A stretch of 48,410 bases of DNA from a virus. Taxonomy: Duplodnaviria > Heunggongvirae > Uroviricota > Caudoviricetes. The translations under genes and the position numbers were made by a program. Shown here in pieces: positions 1,667 to 44,737 of the stretch. The notes below the pieces were generated by a model. It worked only from the letters and a program-made list of their open reading frames with translations. It was not told where the DNA came from and made no database searches. Within the stretch, counting starts at the first letter, position 1. Every line of letters starts with the position of its first letter. The DNA lies in IMG/VR virus record IMGVR_UViG_2531839667_000010, positions 1 to 48,410 of that record. One strand, written 5' to 3'.

Positions 1667-2764
1667 ATGGCGTACTATAACATAGAGAAACGACTAAAAT
1701 CCGATGGCACACCACGCTATCGCTGTAATGTGATTATCAAAGAAAAAGGTGTTATCACTTACAGGGAAAGCAAAACATTCCCTAAACATGCTCATGCCAA
1801 AACATGGGGCACACAGAAAGTGATGGAATTAGATCTATATGGCATTCCATCATCAAATGCAGTTGACGGACTTACAGTCCGTGACTTACTACACAAATAT
1901 TTAAATGACCCAAATGCCGGAGGTAAAGCAGGCCGTACTAAAAGATATGTGCTGGAACTGCTTATGGATAGTGACATCTCCGCGATCAAACTATCTGAAC
2001 TGACAGAAAATGACGTAATTGAACATTGCAGGCTAAGAAACAACGCTGGTGCAGGTCCAGCTACAGTTAGCCACGATGTTAGTTATCTTGGCAGTGTTCT
2101 GGATGCTGCCAAACCTGTATATGGAATTAATTACACATCAAACCCAGCAAAAGCCGCTCGTCCATATCTACTTAAACTTGGTTTAATTGGTAAATCAAAC
2201 CGTCGTAATCGTAGACCAGCATCTGATGAACTGGACATGCTCATTGAAGGCCTTCAACAACGATCTACTCATAAATGCTCAAAAATTCCGTTCGTTGATA
2301 TCCTCAAATTTTCTGTGTGGTCCTGTATGCGAATCGGAGAAGTATGCCGGTTACGATGGGAAGATCTCGACCAGGAACAAAAATCTATACTCGTAAGAGA
2401 CAGGAAAGATCCACGCAAAAAGGAAGGCAACCACATGAAAGTAGCCTTGCTTGGGGAAGCCTGGGATATCGTCCAACGACAGCCCCAAAAATCGGAATTC
2501 ATTTTTCCATATAACAGCACTTCTGTTACTGCGGGATTTCAGAGGGTAAGAAGCAAATTAGGTATTAAGGATCTGCGATACCATGATTTGCGTAGAGAAG
2601 GGGCAAGTCGCTTATTTGAGGCTGGTTTTAGTATTGAGGAAGTAGCCCAGGTTACAGGGCATCGTTCATTAAACGTGCTATGGCAGGTATATACCGAACT
2701 GTATCCAAAATCTTTACATAATCGTTTTGAAGAGCTCCAAAGGAGCAGAAATAAGATCTCTTGA
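1667..2764 (+). CDS. int: Tyrosine-type phage integrase (dusA-associated arrangement)
   Basis: 365 aa; C-terminal catalytic region with LRYHDLRREGASRL (H-x-x-R) and GHRSLNVLWQVYTEL (Tyr nucleophile); divergent from and immediately beside the dusA 5' end. Confidence 0.9.
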   Translation: MAYYNIEKRLKSDGTPRYRCNVIIKEKGVITYRESKTFPKHAHAKTWGTQKVMELDLYGIPSSNAVDGLTVRDLLHKYLNDPNAGGKAGRTKRYVLELLMDSDISAIKLSELTENDVIEHCRLRNNAGAGPATVSHDVSYLGSVLDAAKPVYGINYTSNPAKAARPYLLKLGLIGKSNRRNRRPASDELDMLIEGLQQRSTHKCSKIPFVDILKFSVWSCMRIGEVCRLRWEDLDQEQKSILVRDRKDPRKKEGNHMKVALLGEAWDIVQRQPQKSEFIFPYNSTSVTAGFQRVRSKLGIKDLRYHDLRREGASRLFEAGFSIEEVAQVTGHRSLNVLWQVYTELYPKSLHNRFEELQRSRNKIS

Positions 2765-2812
2765 CACTGTTTATCCATACAGTTAAAAATAATACTGTAT
2801 ACAAACACAGTA
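2761..2812 (+). promoter_or_regulatory. SOS-regulated promoter with two LexA boxes
   Basis: TTGACA at 2761-2766 with TAAAAT about 17 nt downstream; two CTGT-N8-ACAG motifs (ctgtttatccatacag 2767-2782, ctgtatacaaacacag 2795-2810); AGAGGGA Shine-Dalgarno before the ATG at 2826. Confidence 0.6.
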
Positions 2813-2825
2813 TAGAGGGACTTTT

Positions 2826-3044
2826 ATGCGTATTGAAATCTGCATAGCCAAAGAAAAAATGACTAAAATGCCAACCGGTGCTGTGGATGCGTTAAAGGAA
2901 GAATTAACCCGACGCATCAGTAAACGTTATGACGATGTAGAGGTGATCGTAAAAGCCACCAGCAACGATGGCCTTTCTGTTACACGCACCGCAGATAAGG
3001 ATTCTGCAAAAACTTTTGGGGTATTCGGGATAAGTAGTTGTTGA
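2826..3044 (+). pseudogene. dinI: DinI-like protein, 5' portion, interrupted by an IS after codon 64
   Basis: [31 protein letters not shown] resembles the DinI N-terminus as I recall it; the frame runs into IS sequence at 3019 and ends with unrelated residues. Confidence 0.7.
3011..3018. repeat. Target-site duplication (left copy), AACTTTTG
   Basis: Identical 8-mer directly flanks the IS at 5679-5686. Confidence 0.65.
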
Positions 3045-21337: not shown

Positions 21338-21754
21338 TCAGACTTCGAAAGCCAGCCCCTTTGCGATCAAGTCGTCGGCATCCTGTTCAGATACGCGGAT
21401 AATCACACCAGGCTCTACGATAGATACCGGCTCGTTACGCGTGGCATGCAGAGCGTCAATATGCAGGGTGGCCAGCGTTTCTACTGATACCAGGTCACCC
21501 GTTGTGGCCGATTCCGTTTTTACTTTTGCCACGTTAGCAACATTGTTGTCGGTGCTGTCGGTGCTGTCGGTGCTGTCGGAAGCATTCTGCACGCCGTTTT
21601 CACCGTCAACTGACCCGGCATTGCCATCCAGTTCCTCTTCAAGCTCAGCAATACGCATCGTCAGTTCCTGAATGGTGCCGCTGGTACTGACCTCGCGGTT
21701 AAGCTGGGTCCCAAGTTCATTCAGGCGGGCGACCAGCTTTTCTTTTTCTGTCAT
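21338..21754 (-). CDS. FI: DNA packaging protein FI
   Basis: Starts MTEKEKLVARLNELGTQLNREV, close to my recollection of lambda FI; the listed ORF extends 12 codons further upstream. Confidence 0.7.
   Translation of the reverse strand: MTEKEKLVARLNELGTQLNREVSTSGTIQELTMRIAELEEELDGNAGSVDGENGVQNASDSTDSTDSTDNNVANVAKVKTESATTGDLVSVETLATLHIDALHATRNEPVSIVEPGVIIRVSEQDADDLIAKGLAFEV
21548..21579. repeat. In-frame 9-bp tandem repeat (3.5 copies) inside FI
   Basis: (gtcggtgct)x3 + gtcgg, encoding (STD)3 in FI. Confidence 0.6.
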
Positions 21755-36501: not shown

Positions 36502-36891
36502 TCAGGCGGCTGCACCCGCCGTTTTCTCGTACTTACTGATAGTGATTTCGACCTTCCCTTCCGGGATAACCGGCCCCCACTCCACCAGCATTCTTTTCAC
36601 CTGGCTGTCGTCCACCCACACACCCGCGTGGGTCAGGGCGTCAAACAGCGCCTTGTTATAGTTGTCCAGATCGCGAAGCCGGTTATCCGGAGGAAACAAC
36701 ACGATCTCCACTGAAGCTGGTGCCGACGTTGGTTTCGGCAGACGACGTAACTGCTCAATGATGGCTGCACACGCTGCGCTCTGGAATTTTCGCCCCGCCG
36801 CGCTTATCAGGCTCTTACCTGCAAGCGCCCCTTTGTTGGGGTGTCGCCAGTACGTGTTCACGCTGGGCGGAAAAGGCAGTATTAGCTTCAT
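36502..36891 (-). CDS. rusA: Holliday-junction resolvase RusA
   Basis: 129 aa; MKLILPFPPSVNTYW... with RusA catalytic Asp residues. Confidence 0.9.
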   Translation of the reverse strand: MKLILPFPPSVNTYWRHPNKGALAGKSLISAAGRKFQSAACAAIIEQLRRLPKPTSAPASVEIVLFPPDNRLRDLDNYNKALFDALTHAGVWVDDSQVKRMLVEWGPVIPEGKVEITISKYEKTAGAAA

Positions 36892-37214
36892 ACTTTCAGG
36901 CCCCTCTCATGTAACCAGTGGGCTGCACGCAGCCTGGCGTTTGCCTCACCGGCAAGCAGTGCGCGGATAATCCCGACCGCCTCGCTGTCGTCGTCCTTCA
37001 CCGCGGTATGAAGCGTGATGCCCCGGGCCACGCCACGCTTTATCGTGATGACGCCTTTTTTCTCCAGTGCGCGAAGATGCTCCACCGCTGCATTCACTGA
37101 ACGGTATCCCAGCATGGTTGCCACCTCCTGATTGGTTGGCGGGAAGCCACGTTCTTTCTGATAAGAAATCAGCATATCCAGCACCTGCTGCTGGCATTGA
37201 GTTAACGTCGTCAT
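36888..37214 (-). CDS. LexA-type winged-helix DNA-binding protein (no protease domain)
   Basis: 108 aa; ...NQEVATMLGYRSVNAAVEHLRALEKKGVI... resembles the LexA N-terminal domain. Confidence 0.55.
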   Translation of the reverse strand: MTTLTQCQQQVLDMLISYQKERGFPPTNQEVATMLGYRSVNAAVEHLRALEKKGVITIKRGVARGITLHTAVKDDDSEAVGIIRALLAGEANARLRAAHWLHERGLKV

Positions 37215-37864
37215 GCCGCCATCTCCCTGACCAGTTTTTCTGCCTGCTGGCGAACCTGCGCCAGAAAGGCCTCACCACATGCCTCAAGTTCATCGCGCCC
37301 GATGTAGCTGATTGCCGGTCCCTTCCAGGTCTTGTCGAAAACAGCAATAGCACCAGCGAAGAAAGCGCCTGTCGGCACCTGCTTCTCATCCTTCGGGATA
37401 AACCAGGCAGGCAGTTCAAAACCAATACGCCCGCGAATAAAAGCAATATGATCTGCATCTTCCGGCCACCACACTTCGCTGGTGGCAGCTTTGATCAGGA
37501 AAACATAGCGCCCGCCTTTATCACGCATGGCACTGGCATGCTTCATGATGTAACGCATGCCGGTGATGTATTGCCCCTCATGCTGACTGGCGCGGCTGTA
37601 TGGGGGATTACCAAAGGCAGCACCTTTAAGCTCCGCAAGGCGTTCTGACCAGTCATGCGCCAGCGCGTTGTCTTCCGCCGTGTAATACGCAGCACATTTG
37701 GCGTTATCACCGTCAGTGAACAGATCCAGAACAAACGGGCCAAACAGGGTGTTAATTCCCCAGAAAATGTTGTCCGGCGTGCGCCACTGATCGCCCACTT
37801 CCTTCAGTTCATGGGCTGGTTTGTTCCGCAGTTCCGCCAGCGCCTGGCAATATTTATTACTCAT
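37211..37864 (-). CDS. Phage Dam-type N6-adenine DNA methyltransferase, orphan
   Basis: NPPY motif (GAAFGNPPYS); ATG 37862-37864 overlaps the upstream stop (TAATG); the listed ORF starts at a GTG at 37897. Confidence 0.8.
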   Translation of the reverse strand: MSNKYCQALAELRNKPAHELKEVGDQWRTPDNIFWGINTLFGPFVLDLFTDGDNAKCAAYYTAEDNALAHDWSERLAELKGAAFGNPPYSRASQHEGQYITGMRYIMKHASAMRDKGGRYVFLIKAATSEVWWPEDADHIAFIRGRIGFELPAWFIPKDEKQVPTGAFFAGAIAVFDKTWKGPAISYIGRDELEACGEAFLAQVRQQAEKLVREMAA

Positions 37865-38358
37865 TAAGCCCCCACGTAATTCCCTGAGAGATACCACTCT
37901 TCACCTGATGCAGCCCGCTTACTGCTTTTCCGTAAACACCGTTCACGACGCGCCAGAAAATTGTTTCGTTCTGGCTGGGAGTGGCTTTCACGGAATGCCG
38001 CCATCCACACCGTTGCAGCACGACGGTATAAGCCCCTCGACTCCAGTTCTTCCGCCTGGCGGGTCAGGCACAAAATCACCCGCGGGTCGTTAGTGCCGAC
38101 ATAGAAATTGCGCACAGGTCTGGTTTCACGAACTGGTTGTGGTTCCGGATCCTGCGCTCTCTCAGTCAGGCGCTGGAAATGTCTGTGTGTATCTCCTTCA
38201 CAACGGTGAGCCACACGCCCACTCTGACGTAACTTGCTTGCTGACTGCAGAACGCGCTGCCGTGAGTAACCTGCAAAAGCATCCGCAATGTCTCCGGAAG
38301 TACACCCCGGATGGGCTTCAATGAATTTCTGAACTTCATTCAAAAGACTCATGATCAC
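37864..38358 (-). CDS. Hypothetical regulator (PerC/ANR-like C-terminal region)
   Basis: 164 aa; motif ...LESRGLYRRAATVWMAAF... resembles PerC/ANR regulators as I recall; coupled to the O-like gene (ATGA overlap). Confidence 0.4.
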   Translation of the reverse strand: MIMSLLNEVQKFIEAHPGCTSGDIADAFAGYSRQRVLQSASKLRQSGRVAHRCEGDTHRHFQRLTERAQDPEPQPVRETRPVRNFYVGTNDPRVILCLTRQAEELESRGLYRRAATVWMAAFRESHSQPERNNFLARRERCLRKSSKRAASGEEWYLSGNYVGA

Positions 38359-39347
38359 CCCCTGAATCCTGCCGGGATCTGGCTGTAGTCCACATTGTCG
38401 TAACTGGCTTTGAAGTACGGGTCTTCGCGTTTTTCTGTGTACGTGCTGACGGACGGCGATAAGCGCAGGGAAAGCTCATCCCATTTTTCCCGCAGCTTCG
38501 ACGGGCTGAGCACGTTACGGCACCAGAACGGATCGCGGCTGACGCGGCTGTACATCTCGCAGATTTGTTTGTGAGTACGCCCATCCTGTACACACATCAG
38601 GCGAATTTCGTTTGCCCAGGCTGTCCAGTTCGGTTCTTTAGGACGTACCACTTCGCCGTCACATTCGGCGGCCTGCTCGTACAGAGCGATGATTTTTTTC
38701 CAGAGCCACTGTGCGCAGGTCAAATCATCCTGCGTTCCCCACTGGCGCTTTTTAGGGCTGAATACAACCGCATCAGGATGGCGAGTTAAAAAATCCTGTT
38801 CAGCCATCTGCGTGTCCGGTTGCGAAGCGTCCGGACGAGAAGAGGTTTTATTCTCTGTAGTAATCTCTGTTGTATTCTCTGTAAGATCATTGGGCCATTT
38901 TGACCCGATGACAGCGTGTCGTTTTGAACCAATGGATCGTGTCATTTTGCGCTCATCCATCAGGTCACTTTGACCCGATGGAGAGGTGCATTTTGACCTG
39001 ATGGATTCGTTCACTTTGACCTCTTCTAAAAGCTCACTTTCATAGTTGATCGTGTAGAAGTTGGTCATGTCACGCTTCGATTTATTGAGTTGCTCGCGAC
39101 GCAAAACCCCAAGTGATTTCAGGCTTGCAAATGTGCGTTTCAGAGTGGACTCTGACCAGAACGGAAACTGCTCCAGCCACTGTTCTGTCGTGTTATAAAC
39201 CCAGCGAATTCCGCCATGCTCAGTGCCTGAATTCGTTTCATTCAGCCAGTAATGAAGCTGCTGCAACACAATTGCCTCATTCAGACCAATACGGCATGCA
39301 AGATCACGATTTATCACAATGGGCTGGGATGTCATTAACAGGCTCAT
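38355..39347 (-). CDS. Replication initiator (lambda O-like) containing the origin iterons
   Basis: 330 aa with wHTH-like N-terminus; the gene body carries six 23-bp-spaced iterons, as lambda ori lies within O. Confidence 0.7.
   Translation of the reverse strand: MSLLMTSQPIVINRDLACRIGLNEAIVLQQLHYWLNETNSGTEHGGIRWVYNTTEQWLEQFPFWSESTLKRTFASLKSLGVLRREQLNKSKRDMTNFYTINYESELLEEVKVNESIRSKCTSPSGQSDLMDERKMTRSIGSKRHAVIGSKWPNDLTENTTEITTENKTSSRPDASQPDTQMAEQDFLTRHPDAVVFSPKKRQWGTQDDLTCAQWLWKKIIALYEQAAECDGEVVRPKEPNWTAWANEIRLMCVQDGRTHKQICEMYSRVSRDPFWCRNVLSPSKLREKWDELSLRLSPSVSTYTEKREDPYFKASYDNVDYSQIPAGFRG
38893..39030. repeat. Origin of replication iterons
   Basis: Six copies of about YTTTGACCYGATGGA starting at 38899, 38922, 38945, 38968, 38991, 39014 (constant 23-bp phase), followed by a moderately AT-rich stretch. 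Confidence 0.65.
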
Positions 39348-39568
39348 GCCGCACCTCCGAGATGCTTCATGTTTTTTCCGGAGCGAAAGGCTATAAGCGG
39401 CATACTGACGCGGTAATTACGGCCCAGCGGTTCACAAATCACCTTCTGGCATTCACGGTCAACCAGGCTAACACGTAGAACATGCCCTGCAGGCGTGGTG
39501 TACCACTGACCGGGGCGAGGACAACGGAAAGTCTGATTGGTAAATCGTTTGAAAATATTCCGGATCAT
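39344..39568 (-). CDS. Hypothetical small protein
   Basis: 74 aa; ATGA overlaps with both neighbours. Confidence 0.45.
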   Translation of the reverse strand: MIRNIFKRFTNQTFRCPRPGQWYTTPAGHVLRVSLVDRECQKVICEPLGRNYRVSMPLIAFRSGKNMKHLGGAA

Positions 39569-40725
39569 TTGCGCCCCCTTACCTCTGAAGAGTTCAGCGA
39601 CGAATGAATAAGACGGGCAAGAAATGCCGCATCGTTAATTCGGTCATACAGACTTACAGCCAGCGGTGATTCAGCTTTTTCCAGCATGGGATAAAGCTGC
39701 TGCAACCAGACCTGATGAATTGATGAAATGTAGGAATAGAGAACGCTGGCGTTATGTGCAACGTCGCTCAGTACAGAGGGATTTGAAAGCTGTTTCTCCA
39801 TCTGGTTAAAGGCATTGATGTATGCCTCTTTGAACCGGGCAGCACGTTTACCAGTGAAGCCCATAGCAAGGAACGCGAAGCCATCGCGGGTTATTTGATA
39901 GCAAGGTAGTTTGCGAGTACCGCCGTTGGGCTGGCGTACCAAAATTGATGTCTCCGCAAAATTGCGGGCACAAAACTCTGGAGAACAATCCAAAATGCGA
40001 ATCTTTTTCAGAACATCGTCATGACGTTTAGAGAAGAAGTCAGCAACAGCCAAAGAAGATGTAACAGCCTGACCATCAACGATGGCAATTTCAGGTTGAG
40101 AGAGGGTTGGGACAGTAGCCATGATGGCAGCCTCCGTATGCAATGGATAACTTCCACCACCGGAAACGCCAATTTCGCTGGTGGTGAACTGAGCAGGGTT
40201 GGCGTAACCGGCGCATACGGAAACCGGCGCACCTTTCGGTGCCCCCACCCAGCCCACCATAATTTGGGTATAGCTGAGTTGTAGCAACAAAAAAGACGCT
40301 AACGCGCCAATTGTCGCCGTATGCAATTCCAGGACGCCAATCCCGGCACCCGCTTTATAAGGTGCCTGAACAGTGTAACGTCCCGGAATGGCAGAATCAA
40401 TGTGCTGGTGGTCCTTCACACTCAACAAAATCACGCCTGAATTTCCACAAAGGACTAAAGCACTCATGCGGGTAGTCTTTGCGAAGATAGATAACGCGCT
40501 GTGTTTCTGGCTCCCAACGAATAACATGGACATAAAGCCCTCTTCCGTCACGAAACCAGCGGTTAAGTTCCTGCACAACTCGCCCCCCACAGTCAGGTAA
40601 AGTTCTCTGTGGTTACTTACAGCCAGGTGATTTGGTAATCTGCATTCATGCCGTAACAACAGGTGTTCAGCGACGCTGACCACCAGCTGTTGCGACAAAC
40701 GGTTATTTGCCGTTAAACTGTTCAT
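39565..40725 (-). CDS. Rha-domain phage regulatory protein (start uncertain)
   Basis: Rha-type domain (...IVDGQAVTSSLAVADFFSKRHDDVLKKI...) in residues about 205-300. The longest ORF starts at 40725, coupled to the upstream stop; an internal ATG at 40121-40123 with a GGAGG Shine-Dalgarno would give a 186-aa Rha protein. Confidence 0.55.
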   Translation of the reverse strand: MNSLTANNRLSQQLVVSVAEHLLLRHECRLPNHLAVSNHRELYLTVGGELCRNLTAGFVTEEGFMSMLFVGSQKHSALSIFAKTTRMSALVLCGNSGVILLSVKDHQHIDSAIPGRYTVQAPYKAGAGIGVLELHTATIGALASFLLLQLSYTQIMVGWVGAPKGAPVSVCAGYANPAQFTTSEIGVSGGGSYPLHTEAAIMATVPTLSQPEIAIVDGQAVTSSLAVADFFSKRHDDVLKKIRILDCSPEFCARNFAETSILVRQPNGGTRKLPCYQITRDGFAFLAMGFTGKRAARFKEAYINAFNQMEKQLSNPSVLSDVAHNASVLYSYISSIHQVWLQQLYPMLEKAESPLAVSLYDRINDAAFLARLIHSSLNSSEVRGRK

Positions 40726-41611: not shown

Positions 41612-42265
41612 ATGATGAACATGAGTGATCGTATTCGCCAAAGGCGAAAAGAACTGAACCTGACACAACAAGCACTGGCTGATTTGACTGGTGTGAACCG
41701 TGTCACGGTTACTGGATGGGAAAAGGACGACTACCAACCAAATGGAGCCAACCTTCAAGCCCTAGCCAACGCACTTAAATGCGATCCTCTGTGGCTTGTT
41801 AGCGGAAAAGGCTCGCCTGAACCAAAGATAAATCTAAAACCTGAAATATTCGCAGTTAAAAAAGTCCCCCTCATCTCGTGGGTTCAGGCGGGTTCATGGA
41901 CAATGACGGAGCCTGGTGTCAGGAAAGAAGATGCTGAAGAGTGGGTTTATACTACCGCCATTGTATCAGAAATGGCATTTGCACTACGGGTCCGTGGTGA
42001 TTCAATGACCAATCCCCTCGGCTCACCATCGATACCAGAAGGTTCTATCGTTATCGTAGAGCCAGATATTATTGATACAGAGTGTATTAACGGAAAAATC
42101 GTTGTTGCCCATATCAATGGTGGGCAAGAAGCGACACTCAAAAAATTTGTTGAGGACTGGCCGAACAGGTATCTCGTCCCACTAAATCCTAACTATAAAA
42201 CTATTGAATGCGGTGAGAACTGCAGAATAGTTGGTCTTGTCAAACAAGTAATAATGGATTTTTGA
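41612..42265 (+). CDS. cI: CI-type prophage repressor (HTH plus S24 LexA-like autopeptidase)
   Basis: 217 aa; N-terminal HTH (LTQQALADLTGV), C-terminal RVRGDSM Ser nucleophile and downstream Lys. Confidence 0.9.
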   Translation: MMNMSDRIRQRRKELNLTQQALADLTGVNRVTVTGWEKDDYQPNGANLQALANALKCDPLWLVSGKGSPEPKINLKPEIFAVKKVPLISWVQAGSWTMTEPGVRKEDAEEWVYTTAIVSEMAFALRVRGDSMTNPLGSPSIPEGSIVIVEPDIIDTECINGKIVVAHINGGQEATLKKFVEDWPNRYLVPLNPNYKTIECGENCRIVGLVKQVIMDF

Positions 42266-42445: not shown

Positions 42446-42829
42446 TTGGGGGTAGAGGTTTACATGAATCATTTATTCACATGCTCATTTTGCGGAGCAA
42501 CCGAACTGGGAGCGATAAAGATCGTCGCAAAAGGTGGTAAGGACGAACCTGCCATCTGTTCGGAATGCGTAGTCACATGTGTAGAAAAAATGATCCTGAC
42601 TAAAAAATCAGAGGCTGAAAAACCAACCTCTGATAACGAAATAATATCAGTCGATAAAAAACTATTTAAAGAGCTTCTTCAGCTTGTCCTCAACCATCCT
42701 GATTTCGGAAGTAAGCTGGCTGCTGTTGACATTGATAGTAGCTCCACATCGACAAGTGAAACTTTTGTTCGACTTGAGCCAAGCGATTTTCTTCTTCGTC
42801 TTAGTGCCGCACTTAGGGCATGCGGGTAA
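42446..42829 (+). CDS. ClpX-type C4 zinc-finger protein, first gene of the pL operon
   Basis: 127 aa; N-terminus FTCSFCGATELGAIKIVAKGGKDEPAICSECVVTC resembles the ClpX zinc-binding domain (CSFCG...ICxEC) as I recall; GAGG Shine-Dalgarno 6 nt before the ATG; no AAA+ domain. Confidence 0.55.
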   Translation: MGVEVYMNHLFTCSFCGATELGAIKIVAKGGKDEPAICSECVVTCVEKMILTKKSEAEKPTSDNEIISVDKKLFKELLQLVLNHPDFGSKLAAVDIDSSSTSTSETFVRLEPSDFLLRLSAALRACG

Positions 42830-43171: not shown

Positions 43172-44089
43172 ATGAACAATCCGTTTTTCAAAAATATGTT
43201 GGTGTATCGCATTAGTCGCGATTTCACCATCAACCAGGAAGAGCTGGAACAGCAGCTTGAACTATTTCGCTTCACTCCATGCGGTAGCCAGGATATGGCA
43301 AAAACCGGTTGGGTATCACCACTTGGTCAGCTGTCAGATCGCTTGCATCACACTGTCAATAATCAAGTGTTGTTGGTTATTCGCCGGGAAGAAAAAATAC
43401 TGCCATCTCCTGTCATTGCTGAAGAACTGCGCAAGCGTGTGTCGCGTCTGGAATCCGATCAGGGGCGTCGCCTCAAAAAAACTGAGAAAGATTCGCTGCG
43501 TGATGAAGTGTTGCACTCCCTGCTTCCTCGGGCGTTCTCCAAAAACTCGACTGTTAGTTTGTGGATCAACGTCACCGACGGTCTGATCATGGTTGATGCA
43601 GCCAGCGCTAAACGTGCCGAAGACTCACTGGCCCTGCTTCGTAAAACTCTCGGTTCTCTCCCGGTGGTACCGCTGACTATGGAAACGCCGATCTAACTAA
43701 CTATGACCGAATGGGTTCGTTCCGGTAGTGCGCCTGCTGGCTTTGGCCTGGGTGATGAAGCCGAACTGAAAGCTATTCTTGAAGATGGCGGTATTGGACG
43801 CTTTAAAAAACAGACTCTGGTCAGTGACGAAATTCATGTGCATCTGGAAGCTGGCAAAGTAGTTACAAAGCTGTCTATCGACTGGCAACAGCGCATTCAG
43901 TTCGTTCTTTGCGATGACGGCAGCATCAAACGCCTTAAGTTCTCTAATGAGATTACAGAACAAAACGACGATATCGACCGTGAGGATGCGGCTCAGCGGT
44001 TCGACGCTGACTTTGTTCTGATGACCGGCGAGCTTATCTCTCTCATTAACGGATTAACAACCTCTCTCGGCGGCGAAGCCAAGCGATAA
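43172..44089 (+). pseudogene. rdgC: RdgC-like recombination-associated protein, interrupted by one in-frame TAA
   Basis: Listed ORFs 43172..43696 and 43703..44089 are in the same frame, separated only by TAA at 43694-43696; together they resemble full-length RdgC as I recall ([11 protein letters not shown]..., ...[19 protein letters not shown]...). Confidence 0.75.
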
Positions 44090-44170: not shown

Positions 44171-44737
44171 GTGCAGCGCGCCAATATGGAGAAAACCATG
44201 AGCTACATTCAGACATTATCCGGCAAACATTTTAATTACCTCGATATCCAACAGGACGATATCGTGATCGAGGATATTGCTACCGCGTTGTCTCATATCT
44301 GCCGCTTTGCAGGGCATCTTCCTGAGTTTTACAGTGTCGGCCAGCATAGCGTTTTAACCAGCCACCTCGTTCCGCAGGAGTTTGCATTAGAAGCACTGCT
44401 TCATGATGCTGCTGAAGCCTACCTGCAGGACATCCCCTCCCCACTTAAGCGCCTGCTTCCGGATTACCAGGCAATCGAAGCTCGTGTGGACGCAGCCATT
44501 CGGCAGAAGTTCGGTCTACCAACTGAGCAACACCCAACCGTGAAATATGCCGACCTGGTGATGCTCGCCAGCGAACGCCGCGATTTTGAGATTGACGAAG
44601 GTTCCATTTGGCCATGCCTCGAGGGAGTTGTCCCAACGGATTTATTCATTATCAACCCAGTTCGTCCTGGCCAGTCATACGGCATGTTCATCAATCGCTT
44701 TAACGAGTTGATGGAGCAGCGCCAATGCGCCGCATGA
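44171..44737 (+). CDS. HD-domain phosphohydrolase
   Basis: His and His-Asp motifs (SVGQHSVL..., ALLHDAAEAY); likely true start at ATG 44198 (GGAG Shine-Dalgarno). Confidence 0.7.
   Translation: MQRANMEKTMSYIQTLSGKHFNYLDIQQDDIVIEDIATALSHICRFAGHLPEFYSVGQHSVLTSHLVPQEFALEALLHDAAEAYLQDIPSPLKRLLPDYQAIEARVDAAIRQKFGLPTEQHPTVKYADLVMLASERRDFEIDEGSIWPCLEGVVPTDLFIINPVRPGQSYGMFINRFNELMEQRQCAA

Follow-up and report, generated by a model that had tools for sequence, protein, structure and literature searches.

We analysed a 48,410-nucleotide stretch of a Caudoviricetes genome (IMG/VR virus record IMGVR_UViG_2531839667_000010; the whole stretch is called the window below), and our main finding concerns its replication initiator gene. 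A cluster of short phased repeats (iterons) and an adjoining AT-rich block of three 12-mers lie inside this gene and, on sequence evidence, very probably form a lambda-type replication origin. Iterons inside the initiator gene are the textbook design of the lambda origin; an element of this kind is already known, and finding one is not in itself surprising. The less ordinary part is the variant revealed here, which has a non-O winged-helix N-terminal domain (N-domain), strictly 23-bp-phased palindromes, an ACAGAG block that recurs across phyla, and a P-less arrangement with a DnaT-type tail. The full model, with an origin at 38845-39021 in the initiator gene, opening by an O-some-like complex, and recruitment of the host helicase, is also probable, if slightly less so. 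An earlier sequence-only reading of this DNA had placed an origin inside the initiator gene as in lambda, and this is supported by constraint on the DNA, by the position of the repeats in a linker, by modular inheritance, and by co-variation, as examined across 80 species.

The sequence-only reading described six copies of a 15-mer at a constant 23-bp spacing. Autocorrelation of positions 38893-39045 gave base identities of 0.577, 0.561, and 0.536 at lags of 23, 46, and 69, sharp peaks that exceeded all of 2000 shuffles (top value at any lag, 0.46), and Tandem Repeats Finder (TRF) reported periods of 23 and 69 for the cluster. The 23-bp periodicity is thus real, but the first copy is one base off, so that its spacing is 24. 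The 15-mer, written as TTTGACCYGATGGA, is perfect at 38969 and 38992 and has two mismatches at 38899 and 38923, and an inverted copy lies at 38956-38969. Four direct copies therefore match well, but copies 3 (38945) and 6 (39014) are a poor fit; five of the seven matches with at most two mismatches in the whole window fall in the cluster. A better repeat unit is a 13-bp palindrome, GGTCA-YTT-TGACC (GGTCAYTTTGACC), whose register was taken from comparison with relatives. Its six sites follow one another at 24, 23, 23, 23, and 23 bp and span 38893-39021, and the four sites in the window with at most two mismatches are all within the cluster. No second cluster of the 15-mer or the palindrome was found in the window. 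A lambda-type origin has at least four phased dyad repeats about two helical turns apart, and six such sites, two of them degenerate, are present here. They occupy initiator codons 109-152, between the DNA-binding N-domain and the C-terminal domain (C-domain), as also expected of a lambda-type origin.

The AT-rich stretch that had been reported beside the repeats is borne out. The GC fraction is lowest, 0.30, at 38848-38887, compared with 0.50 for the whole initiator gene, and the sense strand is purine-rich. The stretch lies on the low-coordinate side of the iterons, which is downstream in gene sense because the gene is on the minus strand, and this is where the AT-rich region of a lambda-type origin is found. 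It is made up of three 12-mers, of which no matches (0) are expected by chance, and these correspond to codons 156-167, encoding T-E-x-T repeats. Among 81 initiator genes with this N-domain (loci L092-L171), ranging from Enterobacterales to Bacillus, 53 have ACAGAG 12-mers just after the iterons. In these repeats Thr is encoded by ACA in 161/162 cases and Glu by GAG in 159/162, compared with 27% and 46% elsewhere in the same genes, and by this near-fixation of the Thr and Glu codons the hexamer ACAGAG is held as DNA. The iteron sequence differs between lineages, whereas the ACAGAG block is constant. Based on its position and composition, we interpret the block as a candidate DNA-unwinding element; the 12-mer sequence was not found in a relevant context in the literature.

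Other signals around the repeats were also evaluated. There is no DnaA box near the repeats (the only match in the window is at 42473), no sigma-70-like promoter was found in 38300-39700, and no Rfam family was found in the origin region; these results lend no support to an internal promoter, a small RNA, or a DnaA-dependent origin. Three GATC sites (38885-38888, 38935-38938, and 39048-39051) lie within about 170 bp of the origin, an apparent, slight enrichment. The first of these falls between the iterons and the 12-mers, and the phage has its own Dam methylase gene (37211-37897).

Comparison with related phages indicated how the N-domain and the repeats are inherited. The closest records are mEp460_4F5, whose initiator is 98% identical along its full length, SfII, SfIV, mEp460, Stx2a_WGPS2, and Stx2a_1447. 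In SfII, SfIV, and mEp460, the C-terminal half of the initiator and the genes downstream of it are 96-98% identical to those here as far as about 38857. Their N-domains are different (HTH_36 type), and so are the repeats at the equivalent place, where SfII and SfIV have the 15-bp unit GATTTTGACGGGTCA five times and mEp460 has units of the GTGAATCTCCTGCACTACCCCC type with 24/42 spacing. The mosaic joint with SfII- and Kati-type phages is at about 38857, directly after the 12-mer block. One mobile cassette thus comprises the N-domain, the iterons, and the 12-mers, and the O-type C-domain travels as a separate one.

A family scan using the N-domain profile, with one genome per species, gave 80 loci from Citrobacter, Xenorhabdus, Proteus, Pantoea, Yersinia, Pseudomonas, Comamonas, Janthinobacterium, Staphylococcus, Bacillus, and several metagenome-assembled genomes. 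In the 340 nt after the N-domain, the best 9-mer occurred 3.9 times on average in these species, overwhelmingly at distances of 23, 46, or 69 bp, and the corresponding means in two control regions were 2.2-2.3. The repeat units of the family are palindromes of the form GGNCA-WWW-TGNCC. Their variable base tracks residue 67 of the initiator, which is Ser67 here and starts the predicted recognition helix: Ser goes with T in 35/35 cases, Asp with G in 5/5, and Lys with A in 3/3. This co-variation is consistent with direct readout of the iterons by the N-domain but is not proof of it. The N-domain-family initiator of a Staphylococcus caprae prophage (L155, about 2760-3000) carries the palindrome GGTCAAAATGACC at 22-23 bp spacing, and its recognition helix starts SESTIKR, like that of the E. 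coli phage.

The scenario against which the sequence-only reading had set its origin was that the repeats encode a repetitive protein motif and replication starts elsewhere. The repeat region is indeed translated, it contains the short peptide echoes IRSK, IGSK, IGSK, and TENTTEITTEN, and the 69-bp TRF period is in frame. However, a tandem protein repeat should have a period that is a multiple of 3 and conserved amino acids, and neither was observed. As 23 is not a multiple of 3, successive iterons are read in different frames, and the translation of the core GGTCAAAATG changes from one copy to the next, giving (R/G)SKC, GQ(S/N)D, and (E)VK(M/V). When the codons of 69 distinct relatives (68-100% identical) were aligned, third-codon entropy was 0.0-0.38 across codons 105-180, compared with 0.5-1.1 in both flanks, and the first and second positions and the amino acids were as variable there as elsewhere in the gene. 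The wobble positions are thus frozen, with third positions as conserved as first and second ones, unlike in the rest of the gene. The Thr and Glu codons of the TE repeats are essentially invariant across genera, and the units are palindromic, as is typical of DNA sites at which dimers bind, which points to constraint on the DNA. A repetitive protein motif is excluded, because the 23-bp period reads through three frames and disorder is predicted for the segment. By these codon statistics, the repeats are constrained as DNA and not as protein, and the probability that they form a repetitive or low-complexity protein linker with no DNA role, with replication starting elsewhere, is very small. Recent recombination is an unlikely source of the low third-codon diversity because the first and second positions vary normally, and it is also disfavoured by the recurrence of the fixed ACA/GAG codons and the 23-bp phasing in distant genera.

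A DNA role could also be one other than initiation. The palindromes might be bound by the initiator mainly for control (autoregulation, titration or handcuffing, incompatibility, or a transcription roadblock), with initiation elsewhere; plasmid iterons and the inhibition caused by cloned lambda ori indicate that a control function is possible for such sites (PMC3349717). We regard this as highly unlikely, since the 48-kb window contains no second motif cluster, its sole DnaA box match lies outside the origin region, and conserved AT-rich 12-mers directly follow the sites as in lambda ori; control and origin functions are, moreover, not mutually exclusive. The conserved linker DNA might instead mark a joint left by recombination or be bound by another regulator (Rha/Ash, CII-like, or PerC-like), since the mosaic boundary with SfII-type phages adjoins the 12-mers and several regulators are encoded nearby. 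This has hardly any likelihood, as the palindrome changes with the initiator N-domain and not with the neighbours, the neighbours vary widely among loci with identical iterons, and the palindrome is also found in the Staphylococcus prophage, which does not have those regulators. Several points weigh against a lambda-type origin at this site. Two of the six iterons are degenerate in this phage, with three mismatches each; the helix-to-base co-variation follows lineages, so its cases are not statistically independent; and no published experiments on binding, unwinding, or initiation for this phage or its initiator family were found in the papers searched.

The initiator is chimeric as judged by sequence comparison, combining a non-O winged-helix N-domain, a lambda-O-type C-domain, and a DnaT-type tail. 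Pfam and NCBIfam searches with the initiator returned no family that passed, phmmer against PDB sequences gave no match, and the protein profile gave weak winged helix-turn-helix (wHTH) matches in PDB. The initiator was modelled using AlphaFold2 with 47 aligned sequences, and its N-domain is predicted to have a helix-strand-helix-helix-wing layout. Foldseek with this domain returned wHTH proteins, including the plasmid Rep N-domains 5kbj and 4pql, with weak scores (E 0.045-0.08); the initiator profile weakly matched the DnaD N-domain 2vn2 (E 0.48), and PHROG families labelled 'DnaD-like helicase loader' matched the initiator at 1e-35. Pfam Phage_rep_O (PF04492), which lambda O matches at 5.7e-36, did not match the N-domain at E up to 10, and the hhalign probability was 0.2%. 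The predicted local distance difference test (pLDDT) score of the linker was below 50 at residues 114-165 and 167-173. The C-domain is homologous to lambda O (BLASTP 34% identity over 148 amino acids, E 2e-27) and carries the lambda O signature WAN-IRLM...FW..NVLSP.KLR.KW. Foldseek of the C-domain against PDB found nothing better than E = 2, and its structural neighbours in BFVD were phage replication proteins only. The earlier description of the protein as an O-like initiator thus holds for the C-domain but not for the N-domain.

The proposed origin resembles lambda ori in its palindromic iterons with an A-tract centre and a spacing of about 20-24 bp, in the location of the iterons within the coding region of the interdomain linker (codons ~117-145 in lambda O), and in the AT-rich, purine-biased stretch on the downstream side. 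As in lambdoid phages generally, the N-domain and the iterons are exchanged as one module. In contrast to lambda, whose record has four annotated iterons starting at 39034, 39054, 39078, and 39101 (spacings 20, 24, and 23), six iterons are present here, the N-domain comes from another winged-helix family, the AT-rich block consists of three exact-phase 12-mers whose ACAGAG core is fixed, a P gene is missing, and the O tail ...TNTDWIYGVDL is replaced by the DnaT-type tail. A winged-helix N-domain, as predicted here, also occurs in RepA_N-type staphylococcal plasmid initiators (pSK41 RepA; 4pql, 5kbj) and DnaD-like phage replisome organisers, in which the iterons are central in the rep gene and the C-domain recruits host replication proteins. 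Unlike in these initiators, the C-domain here is of the lambda O type, and the N-domain similarity is weak (E ~0.05-0.5).

A cognate P-type loader beside the initiator, which a lambda-type origin should have, is absent. No helicase, loader, or primase gene was found in the early regions by Pfam scans of early-region open reading frames (ORFs) or by PHROG, and tblastn with E. coli DnaC, E. coli DnaB, and lambda P gave nothing in the window. The earlier statement that no P-like or DnaC-like gene is evident downstream is thereby upheld for the early regions, with tblastn negative across the window. The downstream ORF of 164 amino acids encodes a PerC/ANR-type regulator with a small N-terminal HTH-like part and no loader. 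Among the relatives, mEp460, SfII, and SfIV are plaque-forming or inducible phages with a P-less module.

Stx2a_WGPS2 is the type phage of the replication region Eru6, which is described as encoding one Rha and one HTH protein, without a helicase (PMC8951638). The present region is like Eru6 in its gene order (cI, cro, cII-like, Rha/Ash, small ORF, initiator, PerC-like, Dam), in having no helicase or loader gene, and in its flanks, which are 97% identical to Stx2a_WGPS2 and Stx2a_1447. It is unlike the Eru6 and mEp460 initiators, which have an HTH_36-type N-domain and other repeats, in its mEp460_4F5-type N-domain. The Eru papers describe gene content and do not mention iterons, an origin, or DnaT, and a literature search on DnaT-like phage initiators and SfV replication found nothing relevant.

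The initiator carries the conserved DnaT tail, (S)EPDxxIPxGFRG, at its extreme C-terminus, with a match of 8/9. E. coli DnaT, which is primosomal protein I and serves as the adaptor in PriA-PriB-DnaT restart, ends with ...SEPDSQIPPGFRG (dnaT at L005:3979-4518), and the 321-residue relatives of the initiator end with ...SEPDTEIPPGFRG. IPxGFRG is almost invariant in 107 DnaT orthologues, and the minority DnaT form ...IPxGFRGAK was also found among phage initiators; some database records label the initiator 'Primosomal protein I'. When the profile of the C-terminal half was compared with DnaT using hhalign, the tail alone was aligned (E 4.5e-4, 16 columns, 33% probability). The C-domain was considered as a DnaT or DnaD C-terminal domain and rejected, given the lack of a PDB fold match, the hhalign alignment of the tail alone, and its lambda O type. 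The initiator has no DnaT similarity outside the tail and, unlike DnaT, which has a trimerising N-domain and is targeted to forks by PriA/PriB, would be targeted by its own sequence-specific N-domain. Domain searches of the initiator C-terminus, which the sequence-only reading had proposed, thus gave a lambda-O-type C-domain followed by a DnaT-type tail.

Partner genes were tallied for 143 distinct loci, each followed by 1.5 kb of sequence or more. The 94 initiators with a GFRG-type tail had no P-like (0) and no DnaB-like (0) gene beside them, 17 had a DnaC paralogue only (~50% identical to E. coli DnaC), and no partner was detected for 77. Among the 49 with other tails, there were 4 with a P-like gene, 16 with a DnaB-like gene (7 also with DnaC), 2 with DnaC only, and 27 with none detected. 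The tail ...HWNSPEAWENTL pairs with a P-like gene, ...GFSEQDYG...NW with DnaC and DnaB, and ...EEDF.LDD with DnaB. Since different tails pair with different partners, the extreme C-terminus looks like a partner-specific recruiting peptide. The DnaC paralogue lies directly after the 321-residue relatives at L008:4973-5719 and at 18 other viral loci (e.g. L040 and L042). These relatives have the same N-domain and iterons and the tail EPDTEIPPGFRG, and others with that initiator do not have the paralogue. In these pairings, the DnaT-type tail looks like a companion of reliance on DnaC, either the host's or a phage copy.

As no P, DnaC, or DnaB gene is present and the tail copies the DnaT C-terminus, we propose the tail as the recruiter of host DnaB-DnaC to the opened origin, a reading to which we give a little less than an even chance. 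Helicase recruitment, which the sequence-only reading had left unexplained, is thus no longer entirely so: there is no loader gene, but the initiator has a DnaT-type tail. In the proposed mechanism, dimers of the winged-helix N-domain would bind the six palindromic iterons, which read GGTCA-AAA-TGACC in gene sense and are phased at about two helical turns, and the result would be a nucleoprotein complex like the O-some. This complex would destabilise the adjoining AT-rich ACAGAG 12-mers, aided by transcription from the early rightward promoter through the gene. The lambda-O-type C-domain and the flexible tail would then bring in the host helicase, with the tail recruiting DnaB-DnaC either directly via DnaC or via a DnaT partner surface. 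We infer initiator binding, unwinding, and firing at 38845-39021, as well as the target of the tail.

Several points weigh against recruitment by the tail. The link to DnaT is a motif of 9-13 residues; the C-domain of DnaT, a bundle of three helices that binds single-stranded DNA (PF17948), gave no Pfam match in the initiator, and Foldseek against PDB returned no DnaT. A DnaC paralogue is present in some of the relatives that have the same tail, and the tail alone is therefore no substitute for a loader. No published function was found for the DnaT C-terminal tail (PMC13377028, PMC4132743, PMC5778457). The way in which DnaT recruits DnaB/DnaC is stated to be unknown, and a 2026 preprimosome structure favours the DnaT N-domain (PMC13377028).

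An alternative, which we consider unlikely, retains the origin here but has the helicase recruited otherwise than through DnaC by the tail. In one variant, direct contact with DnaB or DnaA is made by the O-type C-domain, and the tail has a different task, such as regulated proteolysis or the binding of partners in the manner of SSB. It counts for this variant that lambda O is degraded by ClpXP and short-lived, and that the tail D-x-x-I-P-x-G-F is loosely like the SSB tip, DDDIPF. In the other variant, the tail docks the initiator on PriA/PriB, and the restart primosome including DnaT loads DnaB on unwound or R-loop DNA; DnaT acts in a PriA-PriB-DnaT complex, with its DnaB/DnaC contact unknown (PMC13377028; PMC5778457). 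However, the partner gene beside a GFRG-tailed initiator is always a DnaC paralogue and never P or DnaB, initiators with other tails pair with P or DnaB, and E. coli dnaT and dnaC are in one operon, which argues for recruitment of DnaB-DnaC by the tail.

A further joint reading, in which IPxGFRG is the contact of DnaT to DnaB-DnaC captured by phage initiators and the ACAGAG 12-mers are a specific unwinding element, is tentative and rather unlikely as a whole. In its first half, the initiator may act as a 'DnaT' with sequence-specific targeting, by which host DnaB-DnaC is loaded at the initiator's own origin without a P-type loader. In its second half, ACAGAG may be read as single-stranded DNA by a conserved surface of the N-domain, by analogy with the 13-mers of DNA-unwinding elements bound by plasmid Rep proteins.

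The initiator family is widespread, occurring in E. coli, Shigella, and Stx-converting phages, with related prophage initiators in Pseudomonas, Staphylococcus, and Bacillus, and it keeps the strict 23-bp iteron phasing and the invariant ACAGAG 12-mers. One branch encodes no loader and has the host DnaT tail in place of the P-binding end of lambda O. Recruitment of DnaB-DnaC by the tail, if real, would explain the replication of P-less lambdoid phages, including Eru6-type Stx phages, and would point to the part of DnaT that touches the helicase-loader complex, which is called unknown in PMC13377028. The tail hypothesis is thus the part with possible importance beyond this phage.

Table. Coordinates in the window of the initiator gene, its predicted domains, the repeats, and the adjacent ORF
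Feature	Coordinates	Strand	Remarks
Initiator gene, 330 amino acids	38355..39347	-	ORF; phrog_391 'replication initiation O-like' 8e-102
N-terminal winged-helix DNA-binding domain (predicted), residues 1-105	39033..39347	-	AlphaFold pLDDT >90
Predicted disordered linker, residues 114-173	38829..39008	-	holds most iterons and 12-mers
C-terminal helical domain (predicted), residues 181-299	38451..38807	-	pLDDT >90
DnaT-type C-terminal tail NVDYSQIPAGFRG	38358..38396	-	SQIPAGFRG; DnaT end SQIPPGFRG
Iteron 1 (gene order) GTTCACTTTGACC	39009..39021		1 mismatch to GGTCAYTTTGACC
Iteron 2 GTGCATTTTGACC	38986..38998		2 mismatches
Iteron 3 GGTCACTTTGACC, perfect palindrome	38963..38975		0 mismatches; flanks lengthen the dyad to 38955-38982
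Inverted repeat at iteron 3			ATCCATCAGGTCA / TGACCTGATGGAT
Iteron 4 TGTCATTTTGCGC, degenerate in this phage	38940..38952		3 mismatches; relatives have intact GAGGTCAAAATGA here
Iteron 5 TGTCGTTTTGAAC, degenerate	38917..38929		3 mismatches; in phase, 24 bp from iteron 6; kept in relatives
Iteron 6 GGCCATTTTGACC	38893..38905		1 mismatch
Three 12-mers, candidate DNA-unwinding element	38849..38884		plus strand reads TATTCTCTGTAG / TAATCTCTGTTG / TATTCTCTGTAA
The same 12-mers in gene sense			ACAGAGAWTAMW; singly ACAGAGAATACA, ACAGAGATTACT, ACAGAGAATAAA
Downstream ORF, 164 amino acids, PerC/ANR-type regulator	37864..38358	-	Pfam PerC 7.6e-09; phrog_1324 'transcriptional activator' 6e-78

The neighbourhood is a lambdoid early-right operon, read towards lower coordinates. 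The gene order is cI (41612-42265, plus strand), cro, CII-like, Rha/Ash, an ORF of 74 amino acids, the initiator, the PerC/ANR-like ORF, and Dam, followed by a LexA-DBD protein, RusA, a KilA-N protein, a DUF968 protein, Q, lysis genes, and the Nu1/A terminase. The LexA-DBD protein (108 amino acids, 36888-37214, minus strand) consists of the LexA DNA-binding domain alone, without the peptidase domain, and is found at the same position in SfII, mEp460, and Citrobacter prophages. The Rha and Ash ORF (39565-40725, minus strand) has 386 amino acids, and the best PHROG covers residues 61-386, so the true start is probably further downstream.

On the plus strand, an RdgC homologue is split into 43172-43696 and 43703-44089, which match positions 2-168 and 174-298 of the 298 in Pfam RdgC; a frameshift or stop, in a pseudogene or through a sequencing error, is the probable cause of the split. 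The ORF at 44171-44737 (plus strand) shows weak YfbR/YfdR-like similarity (E 1.8e-4), which falls short of the Pfam cutoff, and its mEp460_4F5 counterpart is annotated as yfdR. In prophage CPS-53, YfdR reportedly binds DnaA and influences initiation in the host (PMC4776307). A perfect in-frame 9-bp tandem repeat, TGTCGGTGC x 3.7, lies at 21547-21579, presumably in a structural gene.

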